Source: a virus (taxonomy: Duplodnaviria; Heunggongvirae; Uroviricota; Caudoviricetes). Taken from it: a stretch of DNA of 20,812 nucleotides. Each line of letters starts with the position of its first letter. The stretch's first letter is position 1. Both the position numbers and the translations under genes were made by a program. The stretch lies in the IMG/VR virus record IMGVR_UViG_2534681662_000008, positions 1 through 20,812 of that record; one strand, given 5' to 3'. Of this stretch, positions 292 to 3,951 are shown in pieces. A model generated the notes under the pieces. It worked only from the letters and a program-made list of their open reading frames with translations, was not told the origin of the DNA and searched no databases.

Positions 292-667
292 TATTCAGCA
301 GGTTATGGAGCGGTGGGGAGCATGGGCTGCAAACAATCACGAAGATGTGTCATGGGAGTCAATAGCTGCTGGTTTTAAAGGATTAATCCCGCCGAAAGTG
401 AAATCACGCCCTCAGTGTTCTGATGATGATGCAATGATAATTTGTGGCTGCATGGCCCGGTTGAACAAGAAAAATCAGGATTTGCACGATTTGTTGGTGG
501 ATTATTACGTAGGTGGAATGACTTTTATGGGGCTGGCACGAAAGCATGGGTGTTCGGATACCTGTATTGGCAAGCGCCTGCAGAAAGCGGAAGGGGTTAT
601 TGATGGCATGTTGATGATGCTTGATATCCGACTGGAGATGGACAGATACGTAGAACGAATCATGTAG
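281..667 (+). CDS. Q: Late-gene antitermination protein Q (QuuD-like family)
   Basis: ATG at 281 is preceded by AGGTGA (270-275); stop TAG 665-667. [36 protein letters not shown]...CGCMARL...[20 protein letters not shown] closely resembles the cryptic-prophage Q homologue of E. coli (recalled). Overlaps the rusA stop by 11 nt. Confidence 0.8.
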
Positions 668-671
668 GAGC

Positions 672-701
672 TTGACCAGACACATTGTCCGGGGCTATAT
701 T
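672..701 (+). promoter_or_regulatory. Candidate Q-dependent late promoter (pR'-like): -35 TTGACC (672-677), 18-bp spacer, -10 TATATT (696-701)
   Basis: Sigma70-like hexamers 5 nt downstream of the Q stop codon, which is the canonical position of pR' in lambdoid phages. Not verified experimentally or by a promoter model. Confidence 0.4.
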
Positions 702-764
702 TCCGACGCAACCGCAAAATCGGTTGTCGGGATTAGCACCCCGGATGTTTACGGAGCGATATGA

Positions 765-948: not shown

Positions 949-1536
949 ATGACCACTCAGATTTCTGTCGAAACTCTTTCCCCAATTACACACAACCAAA
1001 TTCCCGTTATCACTACCGAGTTACTGGCACAGCTTTACTGTACCGATATCAACAACATCAAAGTAAATTACACCCGTAATTCCGAGCGTTTTGTTGAGGG
1101 TAAACACTTTTTCAAGGTTGTTGGTGATGAGTTGAAAAATTTGCGGGTTACTTTAAGTAACTCACAAAATTTGCAACCATCTTTAAGAGGGTTACAAATT
1201 TCCCCGAAAACCCGCTCCCTTATCCTCTGGACAGAACGCGGAGCAGCCCGTCATGCCAAAATGCTGGAAACCGATCAGGCGTGGGATGTGTTCGAAAAAC
1301 TGGAAGACTGTTATTTCAGCCAGAAACAGCCACCAGCAGCACAAAACTCCCCAACACCAAATGATGGATGCGCATTGCTGATCCACTTCGATAAACATGG
1401 TCAGGTCGAATTCACGGAAAAAGCCCCCGCCGATGCGATGGTATGCACTCTGGAACGGTTTAAATTTTATCTGGAGCAATACGGCTGGATCGTTGCCCGT
1501 AAAGAGCAACTGGTGGAACGACTGATGAGGCTTTAA
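949..1536 (+). CDS. ORF6N-domain protein (phage antirepressor/KilA-like DNA-binding family)
   Basis: ATG 949 with GGAG 8 nt upstream; 195 aa. Motifs IPVITTELLAQLYCTDINNIKVNYTRNSERFVEGKHFFKVVGDELKNL and LILWTERGAARHAKML fit the ORF6N-domain pattern as I recall it. Call rests on motif recognition only. Confidence 0.55.
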   Translation: MTTQISVETLSPITHNQIPVITTELLAQLYCTDINNIKVNYTRNSERFVEGKHFFKVVGDELKNLRVTLSNSQNLQPSLRGLQISPKTRSLILWTERGAARHAKMLETDQAWDVFEKLEDCYFSQKQPPAAQNSPTPNDGCALLIHFDKHGQVEFTEKAPADAMVCTLERFKFYLEQYGWIVARKEQLVERLMRL

Positions 1537-1611: not shown

Positions 1612-1638
1612 AAACCCGCCGCCGAGCGGGTTTTTTTG
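1612..1638 (+). terminator. Rho-independent terminator after the ORF6N gene
   Basis: Stem CCCGC(1615-1619)/GCGGG(1626-1630) flanked by AAA, followed by TTTTTTT (1631-1637). Confidence 0.6.
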
Positions 1639-1833
1639 TGTCCGGAAAGTGGTGCAGTACGTTAAATGCGCATGTTATTTTTCTAAAATTCATGAATAAT
1701 AAAAATACATACATATATTTACGAATATTGACATGATTTTCTATTGAAAAAAGAGCCGGCATTATTAATATCCATCTTCGGTTCCGAATGGGATATAAAG
1801 CGCGGTCATTTTTATTTCTCTTGAGGAACCAAT

Positions 1834-2377: not shown

Positions 2378-2702
2378 TCCTTTCTCATGACGAAAAAAGA
2401 CACGAGCATCCAGGAATACTCGTGGGACAACGTCCTTTGGATAGCAATTTGCGAGAGGGTGAAAAGTAGCGCGGTCGTCGGATTAAGACCGCGGGACAAA
2501 GTCCATGAAGAATAATAAGTATTGGCCCCCTTCCGGGGACATGTTCATACTACTAAGATTCAGAAGTGGTTTAAATCCTCAAATTAACATTAATTTCCGA
2601 TAAGTCTTATTTCATTTCTTTGCGCCACATCTGGCGCGCATCAAATAACGCCACGCAAAGGGCATCTGCGGATGCCGGTGCTTTTGACGGGGTGTTTTTT
2701 AC

Positions 2703-2725
2703 GGGCCGCTGGTGGCCCTTTTTTA
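2703..2725 (+). terminator. Rho-independent terminator 18 nt upstream of the holin ribosome-binding site
   Basis: Stem GGGCC(2703-2707)/GGCCC(2714-2718), loop GCTGGT, then TTTTTT (2719-2724). A second hairpin, GGCATC-TGCG-GATGCC at 2661-2676, lies just upstream. Confidence 0.55.
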
Positions 2726-2743
2726 TTTACAGGAGAAAAAAGT

Positions 2744-3136
2744 ATGTCTGAACCCTTATCCGGTTCCGGCACGGCTGCGGCGCTCGGCGGGGCGACGGTG
2801 TACGGGCTGTTTACCGGGACGGATTTCGGGATTGTGTTTGGTGCGTTCGCCGGTGCGTTATTTGTGGCAACGATGCCGCAGGCGCTTTCAGCCTGGCGTG
2901 TGGCGGCGCATTTTCTGGTGTCGTTCATTATCGGCGTGCTGGGGGCAGAGGTTCTGGCGTCCTGGCTGGTAAAGCATACAGGGTTTGACGGTGCACCTGT
3001 CGACGCACTGTGTGCAGTGCTGGTGTCAGTGGTGTCGGTGAAGATTCTGTCGTTCATCCACCAGCAGGATATTGCATCACTGGTGTCCGGTGTGTTCTCC
3101 CGCCTGCGGGGCGGAGGAGGCGGCAATGTTAAGTAA
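2744..3136 (+). CDS. Putative holin (Gly-rich membrane protein with 3 predicted TM helices)
   Basis: ATG 2744 with AGGAGA at 2731-2736; 130 aa. Three hydrophobic segments and a charged C-terminus (SRLRGGGGGNVK). First gene of the lysis cassette, directly upstream of the endolysin. Family not pinned down. Confidence 0.55.
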   Translation: MSEPLSGSGTAAALGGATVYGLFTGTDFGIVFGAFAGALFVATMPQALSAWRVAAHFLVSFIIGVLGAEVLASWLVKHTGFDGAPVDALCAVLVSVVSVKILSFIHQQDIASLVSGVFSRLRGGGGGNVK

Positions 3137-3404
3137 CCTTCCCGGATTGCTGAATGTGGCGTTATGCACGGTTATCGTGCTGACGCTCTTTTTTTATCGT
3201 CGTCGTGACTCCAGACACAAACCGCTGATGTCATGGCTGGCCTGGCTGCTGATGCTGCTGTATGCCTTTGCGCCCCTCAGCTATCTGTGCGGTCGCCCGT
3301 TAGCGGCGAACTGGCTGGCGGTGGGGCTTAATCTGCTGTTCTGCGTGTTGGTGATTCGCGCACGCGGGAACGTTTCAAAAATCTTTGTATTACGAAGGCG
3401 CTGA
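3126..3404 (+). CDS. Second holin or antiholin-like lysis membrane protein (3 predicted TM helices)
   Basis: ATG 3126 with GGAGG at 3113-3117; overlaps the upstream gene by 11 nt; 92 aa. Hydrophobic segments LLNVALCTVIVLTLFFY, LMSWLAWLLMLLYAFAPL and ANWLAVGLNLLFCVLVI, with a basic C-terminal tail. Confidence 0.5.
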   Translation: MLSNLPGLLNVALCTVIVLTLFFYRRRDSRHKPLMSWLAWLLMLLYAFAPLSYLCGRPLAANWLAVGLNLLFCVLVIRARGNVSKIFVLRRR

Positions 3405-3405
3405 T

Positions 3406-3951
3406 ATGAAGTCGAAAGATGAAATTTTTGACGAAGTTCTGGGAAAAGAGGGCGGTTACGTCAATCACCAGGATGATAAAGGCGGACCGACAAAATGGGG
3501 TATTACTGAAAAAGTTGCCCGTGCGCACGGATACCAGGGCGATATGCGTGATCTGACGCGCGGACAGGCGCTGGAAATACTCGAGGCGGACTACTGGTAT
3601 GGACCACGTTTTGACCAGGTGGCAGCGTTATCCCCTGATATTGCCGCAGAGTTGTGTGATACGGGCGTCAACATGGGGCCAGCCGTGGCGTCAAAAATGC
3701 TTCAACGCTGGCTGAACGTTTTCAACCTGCGCGGGAAACTGTATCCGGATATGGATGCAGACGGACGTATCGGGCCGCGTACTCTTAATGCATTACGGGT
3801 ATATCTGAAAAATCGTGGCAGGGATGGAGAGCTGGTAATGCTGACCGCACTGAACTGTACGCAGGGTGACCGCTATCTGGAGCTGGCAGAGAAACGGGAG
3901 GCTAACGAGTCGTTTGTTTACGGCTGGATGAAAGAGCGCGTAGCAGTTTAA
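3406..3951 (+). CDS. Endolysin: GH108-type N-acetylmuramidase domain with a C-terminal peptidoglycan-binding domain
   Basis: ATG 3406 with GAAGG upstream; 181 aa. Contains the GH108 signature EGGYVNHQDDKGGPTKWGIT near the N-terminus, and the C-terminal half fits a PG_binding_3-like domain. Starts 1 nt after the stop of the preceding membrane protein. Confidence 0.85.
   Translation: MKSKDEIFDEVLGKEGGYVNHQDDKGGPTKWGITEKVARAHGYQGDMRDLTRGQALEILEADYWYGPRFDQVAALSPDIAAELCDTGVNMGPAVASKMLQRWLNVFNLRGKLYPDMDADGRIGPRTLNALRVYLKNRGRDGELVMLTALNCTQGDRYLELAEKREANESFVYGWMKERVAV

Follow-up and report, generated by a model that had tools for sequence, protein, structure and literature searches.

A probable AnrP/Ant-type antirepressor gene with IsrK and C4 RNA elements lies between Q and a homologue of the late promoter pR' in a lambdoid prophage sequence

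We analysed a stretch of 20,812 nucleotides (nt) from a virus of the Caudoviricetes (IMG/VR record IMGVR_UViG_2534681662_000008, positions 1 to 20,812), hereafter called the window, focusing on an open reading frame (ORF) at 949-1536 on the + strand, here named ant, which starts with ATG and encodes a protein of 195 amino acids (aa) with an ORF6N domain. All together, the data make it highly probable that ant encodes an antirepressor of the AnrP/Ant type, and that it belongs to a self-contained cassette resembling the immI locus of phages P1 and P7, inserted between the antiterminator gene Q and its cognate late promoter pR' and switched by RNA in the manner proposed below. An earlier note, made from the sequence alone, had described ant as the first gene of the Q-dependent transcript, ahead of the lysis genes. 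The physical layout was read correctly, since the ORF directly follows the Q gene and the lysis genes are found further downstream. The transcriptional assignment was not confirmed: because ant is not located downstream of pR', it does not appear to be a Q-dependent late gene, and the late expression of an antirepressor, which had been the reason for interest in it, falls away, ant lying upstream of pR'.

The assignment of the late promoter carries this conclusion. The Q gene (272-667, + strand) belongs to the 933W/phage-21 family (PF06530, E 7e-52), and its end is separated from ant by 280 bp. A homologue of the 933W-type pR' is found past the ant stop codon (1536), on the + strand at 1554-1588, with a -35 element TTTACG (1554-1559), a -10 element TATCCT (1576-1581) and a predicted start at A1588, followed at 1612-1640 (+ strand) by a GC-rich leader hairpin with a U-run detected by a terminator scan. 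Specifically, the pR', qut site and first terminator annotated in phage phi24B read TTTACGATCGTAAAAATCTGCATATCATGATAAGAGTGGTTAC...AACCCGCCGATGCGCGGGTTTTTTT, while the homologous window stretch, 1554-1640, reads TTTACGATCGTAAAAAGTTGAATATCCTGTTAAGAGTGGTTAC...AAACCCGCCGCCGAGCGGGTTTTTTT, and a four-way alignment that included the phi24B and Sakai promoters showed homology from the -35 element to just past the T-run. In the Sakai prophage Sp5 the pR' start and the 3' end of tR' have been mapped 258 nt apart (PMC7547250). The published start coordinate (1,266,203) lands within Q in the RefSeq version, and the version-independent distance of 258 nt was used instead; measured back from the U-tract of the second Sakai terminator, this distance placed the start 6-7 nt past TATCAT, which corresponds to A1588 of the window. 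In addition, the Q-binding element of the Q21 family lies within -40 to -1 of pR', and this stretch is conserved at 1548-1587. Since 1554-1640 is homologous to a 933W-type pR' that was mapped experimentally in Sakai, the cognate late promoter is predicted to lie downstream of the ORF6N stop codon and the gene upstream of pR'; ant is not, as a member of a Q-dependent late unit would be, downstream of the pR' start and of qut. The terminator that had been noted behind the gene does exist as a hairpin (1612-1633) with a T-run, but it is the leader hairpin of pR'. By analogy with Gifsy-1, it probably forms the 3' end of the ant mRNA, and pR' transcripts that are unmodified are likely to meet their first stop signal there.

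The product of ant was then compared with protein families. A search with profile hidden Markov models assigned residues 12-105 to the Pfam family ORF6N (PF10543; 69.5 bits with a cut-off of 27.8, E 3e-19), the match spanning profile positions 3-86 of 86 and bearing out the domain proposed earlier. The family PHROG 2379, labelled 'anti-repressor', aligned to residues 1-195 over its entire length (profile positions 1-187 of 187, E 1e-90), and several further anti-repressor PHROGs covered the N-terminal 130 residues. When Ant was aligned with AnrP of the Salmonella prophage Gifsy-1, whose sequence was taken from S8 Fig of PMC4825925, a full-length homology was found, with 54% identity over aa 1-192 (E 1e-63); residues 1-27 and the LILWTERGAARHAKMLETDQAW motif are invariant between the two, and the C-terminal domains are loosely similar. 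Ant has more than 5,000 relatives among database proteins; the nearest of them, from E. coli, E. albertii, Shigella and Salmonella, carry the annotation ORF6N-domain protein or antirepressor. In the C-terminal 90 residues no Pfam domain was detected, and the matches there were confined to unnamed PHROGs and one 'transcriptional regulator' C-terminus. An AlphaFold2 (AF2) model with a mean pLDDT (predicted local distance difference test) of 74.7 predicts an N-terminal ORF6N domain followed by a disordered linker (about 121-138) and, at the C-terminus, a small alpha/beta domain (142-194). Neither the ORF6N protein nor Q was assigned to a family by NCBIfam, and a sequence search of the PDB with Ant gave no match at E up to 1. 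Because of the ORF6N domain, the full-length match to PHROG 2379 and the homology to AnrP, a role as AnrP/Ant-type antirepressor of lambdoid prophages is the best supported by these comparisons, in agreement with the antirepressor-like nature suggested in the earlier note.

The same note had considered the role of the gene undescribed. In fact, both close systems have been studied: the Gifsy-1 locus has been dissected, and AnrP expression there leads to more antQ-operon RNA and to Gifsy-1 phage production (PMC4825925), while phi24B Ant has been knocked out, the deletion lowering the activity of a pR' reporter after norfloxacin to about 30-55% of the wild type (Fogg et al. 2011, PMC3064807). 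The authors of the latter study regard phi24B ant, which they place ahead of qut, as an early gene whose effect is to accelerate derepression (PMC3064807). By analogy with AnrP and phi24B Ant, the homologues that provide this evidence, Ant would bind or inactivate a prophage repressor, or induce the prophage. A different activity, in which Ant would bind DNA and regulate transcription at promoters directly, like KilA-N/Bro-N proteins, and would not act on a repressor, seems to us improbable. All the matched PHROG families, except the matches to the C-terminal half, are labelled anti-repressor, a label that is an annotation and not a test; the production of Gifsy-1 phage upon AnrP expression and the phenotype of the phi24B knockout, which fits faster derepression, also speak against it, and the fold matches of Ant are weak, a Foldseek search against the PDB giving no match at E below 0.4.

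The region between Q and ant contains a compact set of RNA elements, all on the + strand. A sigma-70 promoter, PisrK, was found at 672-701 (TTGACC, 18-nt spacer, TATATT; 10/12 in the promoter scan), its -35 element beginning 4 nt past the Q stop codon and the promoter sitting 7 nt 5' of the start of the small RNA IsrK. IsrK itself maps to 708-784 (Rfam RF01394, 71.2 bits with a cut-off of 50), aligns to the Rfam family along all 77 positions, ends in an intrinsic terminator detected by the terminator scan at 763-785, and represents the a1b1 element, the overlapping c4-a1b1 motif RF03163 being located at 695-747. It carries the sites a1 (UUAGCAC, 733-739) and b1 (UACGGAG, 750-756). Further downstream, a C4-type antisense RNA occupies 812-896 (Rfam RF01695, 78 bits with a cut-off of 45), with the b' site UUCCGUAC at 854-861, in the loop of C4 hairpin 2, and the a' site GUGCUAA at 868-874. 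The ant leader contains the two target sites, a2 (UUAGCAC, 901-907) and b2 (GUACGGAG, 933-940). All a and b sites were located by reading the sequence together with an alignment (A3) of 38 distinct cassettes from loci L001-L085. The minimum free energy fold of the leader, 708-960, returned the IsrK hairpins and the C4 structure (z = -4.46 against shuffled sequences). The strong ribosome-binding site previously noticed ahead of ant is indeed present as a Shine-Dalgarno sequence GGAG at 937-940, 8 nt before the ATG, but it is also part of b2, the target of C4.

Covariation across the 38 cassettes supports these pairings. In the C4 fold together with the a'-a2 helix, 99.7% of the alignment cells are paired and 18 pairs are altered on both sides, whereas slid controls gave 34-44% paired. 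Pairing is complete (100%) in both the a1-a' and the a'-a2 helix, against 24-44% for their slid controls; five of the eight pairs in each show compensatory double changes, and compensatory changes are present in IsrK hairpin 1 as well. At least six a-types occur (AGCAC, GGCGU, AGGAAC, GAGAC, GGUCU and GGAAC). Five b-types were recognised (UACGGA, UCGAAAC, GAAACC, GAAAAAGG and UCAACC), and b1, b' and b2 shift jointly in each cassette. For the b sites, whose b' and b2 registers shift between types, column-based counting of covariation is not applicable and duplex energies were substituted; these are noisy, with a mean of -11.0 kcal/mol for cognate and -7.6 kcal/mol for non-cognate pairs and some non-cognate pairs equally stable, and the argument for the b sites rests chiefly on direct reading of the alignments. 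The a- and b-types occur in about 10 combinations, which suggests that the two specificities reassort independently, and the boundaries of recombination fall within the spacer of the promoter and close to codon 125 of ant. We also considered whether the cassette could be a decayed remnant and rejected this: the ORF is intact, the RNA elements score at or near their cut-offs, and pairing is kept by compensatory change.

The cassette behaves as a unit that occurs in different genomic contexts. From the promoter to about codon 125 of ant, the window shares 77-82% identity with nin-region DNA of phi24B, CP-1639 and VT2-Sakai, where the corresponding cassette is flanked by ninE/dam and roi, precedes a gene annotated ant and is located about 2.2 kb upstream of Q, and where Rfam likewise detects isrK, c4-a1b1 and C4. 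We collected 80 IMG/VR loci encoding Ant relatives and mapped segments of the window onto them. About 35-40 of these loci have Q (92-100% nt identity), the cassette, an ant gene with the C-terminus of the window type and a conserved pR' block about 14 nt past the ant stop codon; in four more, about 720 nt of additional DNA separate ant from this block. Loci with another ant C-terminus have no adjacent Q, and where Q and the conserved block were found they lie 2.3-3.3 kb downstream. Where Q and cassette are apart, the block is directly 3' of Q. Furthermore, a comparison with 5,426 complete E. coli genomes gave matches to the segments that bridge the two junctions in 133 and 145 genomes, of which 37 and 22, respectively, match over at least 80% of the segment. 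The arrangement of Q, cassette and pR' is common.

In these loci the PisrK hexamers TTGAC and TATA(T/G)T keep a constant spacing despite at least six different upstream flanks and varied spacers. Because the hexamers are kept in such differing surroundings, the comparison argues that PisrK is functional and the cassette's own promoter. This bears on the proposal that the promoter at 672-701 is itself pR', that Q acts there, that the ORF6N gene is after all the first late gene and that IsrK is a short terminated pR' transcript. A promoter 4 nt past the Q stop codon followed by a short terminated RNA does superficially resemble lambda pR', 6S RNA and tR'; moreover, a promoter spacer (AGACACATTGTCC) is common to the Q-adjacent cassettes and missing from those of the nin region, and in Gifsy-1, too, a Q-like gene is immediately 5' of isrK. 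Nevertheless, we consider this proposal very unlikely. The clear homologue of the 933W-type pR', including the -40 to -1 binding region of the Q21 family, stands behind ant at 1554-1640, while 668-707 is, by eye, without similarity to that region. In addition, the block from promoter to ant also exists as a unit in the nin region, upstream of and far from Q, a Salmonella locus has the cassette behind a different, 224-aa ORF in the Q position, and lacZ fusions to the isrK promoter of Gifsy-1 are expressed in cells that have not been induced (PMC4825925).

By sequence, the ant gene, its RNA control elements and the position next to Q correspond to a published and experimentally studied locus, the antQ-isrK-orf45-anrP-isrJ region of Gifsy-1 (Hershko-Shalev et al. 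2016, PMC4825925), with which the window shares the gene order: a Q-type antiterminator gene, an isrK promoter with a 77-nt terminated IsrK, a structured RNA, an antirepressor of about 190 aa and a short terminated RNA. The equivalent of the window C4 is the STnc1160 region of Gifsy-1. In that prophage anrP is transcribed from the isrK promoter (280 versus 3 Miller units). The mRNA made by read-through is silent with respect to translation; when IsrK is provided in trans, translation of anrP increases more than 100-fold. Termination at the IsrJ terminator gives an isrK-orf45-anrP transcript of about 910 nt (PMC4825925), compared with the 933 nt predicted from 708 to 1640 for the read-through transcript of the window. 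The two loci differ in the type of Q, which is 933W/21-like in the window, whereas the Gifsy-1 antQ primer predicts another N-terminus, and in the position of isrJ, where the window has the 933W-type pR' leader; no isrJ homologue was found when 1520-1840 was searched against Rfam at E up to 10, the best match being a chance-level Trp_leader (21.7 bits). What is left beyond the published locus, namely the exact insertion between Q and pR' and the reassorting a/b specificity types, is mildly interesting.

The immI locus of phages P1 and P7 encodes a C4 RNA with a' and b' sites, preceded by a1 and b1 and followed by a2 and b2, with b2 at a ribosome-binding site, and the C4 RNAs are trans-acting repressors. 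The window reproduces this architecture: C4 lies upstream of ant on the same predicted transcript, a1/b1 and a2/b2 are complementary to a'/b', and b2 is at the ribosome-binding site. Regulator RNA and target are co-transcribed from one promoter in both cases, and in both the specificity types differ through co-varying a and b. However, immI has icd, while the window is without it, no conserved ORF having been found between C4 and ant, and b2 covers the Shine-Dalgarno sequence of ant itself. Moreover, unlike in immI, the a1b1 element of the window ends in its own terminator and would thus be a separate small RNA, IsrK, and Ant is a 195-aa ORF6N protein.

On these grounds we propose the following mechanism. 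In the lysogen PisrK would fire and most transcripts would stop at the IsrK terminator, giving the 77-nt IsrK with a1 and b1. Read-through RNA would contain C4 with a' and b', then a2, b2 and ant, and would end at the hairpin 1612-1640. The a' and b' sites of C4 would pair with a2 and b2, so that, with b2 covering the Shine-Dalgarno sequence, Ant would remain untranslated. IsrK would compete for a' and b' through a1 and b1, and its accumulation would free the ribosome-binding site and allow ant translation. Ant would then inactivate the prophage repressor, leading to early transcription and synthesis of Q, and Q would act at pR' (start about 1588), from which the tRNA genes and the lysis and structural genes would be read. 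After induction, the early transcript that passes through Q could also extend into ant as its last gene. The identity and coordinates of the elements, the covariation of the RNA pairings and the location of pR' downstream of ant come from the present analysis. The activation of anrP translation by IsrK, the induction of Gifsy-1 by AnrP and the boost that phi24B Ant gives to induced pR' are taken from the homologues, and we infer both the repression by C4 in the window cassette and the identity of the repressor targeted by Ant.

Several points weigh against this reading. The phage repressor gene lies outside the window. The c4-a1b1 score of 45.6 bits is slightly below the Rfam cut-off of 46.7, phi24B reaching 50.6. 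The -10 element of the window pR', TATCCT, is weaker than the TATCAT of 933W, and the strength of the leader hairpin as a terminator is uncertain, as the homologous Sp5 hairpin leaks and a 258-nt RNA is seen (PMC7547250). In Gifsy-1, constitutive co-expression of STnc1160 (orf45/C4) strengthened the toxicity of IsrK and gave no relief, and cis mutations in a1 raised basal anrP translation (PMC4825925). Because these a1-mutant and STnc1160 results are not predicted by it, a simple picture of C4 as repressor and IsrK as decoy is incomplete. Finally, the model published for Gifsy-1 needs coupling to orf45, whose equivalent in the window has 31 codons and ends short of ant.

According to that model, a1 pairs in cis with a' and silences the leader, IsrK in trans exposes orf45's ribosome-binding site, ant translation is coupled to that of orf45, and C4 is no trans repressor. 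It has mutational and structural data behind it for Gifsy-1 (PMC4825925), and in the window an ATG at 817 opens the 31-codon ORF (MAGCVGEPKGSPVSVPGSANPAQFATTMIST; 817-912, + strand), which overlaps C4, takes the orf45 position and is almost identical to a 31-codon 'orf45' among the E. coli homologues displayed in the same study (PMC4825925). For the window cassette we regard the model as possible, although we lean against it. Since the small ORF does not adjoin ant but stops 37 nt upstream of it, translational coupling of the Gifsy-1 kind is unlikely here. Throughout the 38 cassettes the small ORF ranges from 14 to 36 codons, ends 21-90 nt short of ant and shifts frame, and because its length and frame vary in this way the conservation over it appears to be at the RNA level. 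Furthermore, covariation with a' and b' extends to a2 and b2, which lie downstream of C4 and have no part in the published model. The region also matches the C4 family (RF01695), whose P1 and P7 members are established trans-acting repressors. The immI-like control of ant by C4 and IsrK remains the reading we prefer.

Among the Shiga toxin (Stx) phages, phi24B, 933W and VT2-Sakai share with the window the leader from the promoter through isrK to C4 (77-94% nt identity), an Ant with an N-terminal ORF6N domain, and the type of Q and pR'. Their cassette differs in location, being in the nin region from ninE to roi and about 2.2 kb upstream of Q, whereas in the window it comes after Q; the C-terminus of their Ant is a P22-Ant-like domain, while that of the window Ant is of another kind. 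The window resembles the lambda-type late operon in having Q, its cognate pR' and leader hairpin and, further downstream, tRNA genes and then lysis genes. The end of Q and pR' overlap in 933W-type phages, but in the window about 890 bp, the ant cassette, stand between the Q stop codon and pR'.

A more speculative extension, which we offer tentatively and rather doubt, is that isrK-C4-ant cassettes form a combinatorial RNA 'immunity code' of enterobacterial lambdoid prophages, setting which co-resident prophages share or evade one another's C4 repression and IsrK activation, and with it which are co-induced. The placement exactly between Q and pR', found too behind the different ORF in the Q position of the Salmonella locus, might in addition link the pR' leader with the 3' end of the ant message. 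If true, the specificity types controlling prophage cross-talk would bear on the co-induction of Stx and other prophages; the idea would extend known P1/P7 biology and would bring no new principle. For annotation, the consequences are more direct. The gene would be labelled as an AnrP/Ant-type antirepressor under IsrK/C4 control, the late promoter would be placed at about 1554-1588, and IsrK and C4 would be added. More generally, an ORF that comes first after Q need not depend on Q, since mobile cassettes can be located in the interval that separates Q from pR'.

Some of the collected loci showed further arrangements. The contig of the window carries a second C4-ant cassette (L010, 1-145), about 4-9 kb past the right end of the window and on the opposite strand. 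Its b' and b2 are the same as in the window, and its a'/a2 are ACGCC/GGCGU versus GUGCU/AGCAC; the contig stops within this cassette, which leaves its IsrK out of view. In the Salmonella enterica locus mentioned above (CP191473.1, 1-5100; L086), the isrK-C4-ant cassette behind the 224-aa ORF is followed by a 254-aa ORF that by eye resembles the A subunit of an ADP-ribosylating toxin, and a partial second ant C-terminus is present at the start of the locus. A locus of Izhakiella australiensis (L087) has two opposed isrK-C4 cassettes, at 538-726 (- strand) and 2751-2949 (+ strand), within about 2.3 kb. The record PP818812.1 (L004), named 'Actinobacillus phage vB_Apl-pPE4', contains a cassette that shares 97-99% identity with its E. 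coli counterpart, and the surrounding genes (Ead/Ea22-like, Hok, TerB, holins) follow an order typical of lambdoid prophages; the Actinobacillus host label looks doubtful.

The window opens with a RusA gene (28-291). Homologues of the Q gene that follows are annotated with an ATG corresponding to 284, which gives a product of 127 aa. This Q is 81% identical to Sakai Sp5 Q, of the 933W type, over aa 2-125, and tblastn comparison with Q of 933W, VT2-Sakai and BP-4795 gave 80-83% identity. When 272-667 was compared with 390-824 of locus L134, the window Q was found to end in ...YVERIM, without the 19-residue C-terminal tail of 933W/Sakai Q. As this short allele is kept at 92-100% nt identity across dozens of loci, it is probably functional. 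The pR' leader is shortened as well: of the 933W-type leader (L003 8976-9233, L134 846-1103), the window keeps only the first ~50 nt (1588-1640). Because the homology ends past the T-run of the first hairpin, the leader part that in Stx phages contains the 74-nt StxS RNA (PMC7547250) is missing from the window.

The first genes 3' of pR' are tRNA-Thr(UGU) and tRNA-Gly(UCC) (1834-1987, + strand), identified by ARAGORN and by the Rfam tRNA family; a weak promoter-like site lies ahead of them at 1744-1771, and Stx phages have Ile/Arg tRNA genes in the equivalent position, upstream of stx. The lysis genes, two for holins and one for a GH108 endolysin (2672-3951, + strand; PF16931, PF05449, and PF05838 with PF09374), come first among the protein-coding genes of the late operon and are followed by the gene of the small terminase subunit Nu1. 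Their supposed displacement from the first position after pR' is thus not seen, the order of two tRNA genes and then holins and endolysin being that of other lambdoid and Stx phages. The interval of about 680 bp between the tRNA genes and the holin gene (1990-2670) is poor in ORFs; in related prophages it is occupied by TerB and DUF3927 genes or by a DNA methyltransferase gene, and in the window a strong terminator-like hairpin (AACCGCC...GGCGGTT followed by T7) is found at 2351-2370, shortly upstream of the lysis genes.

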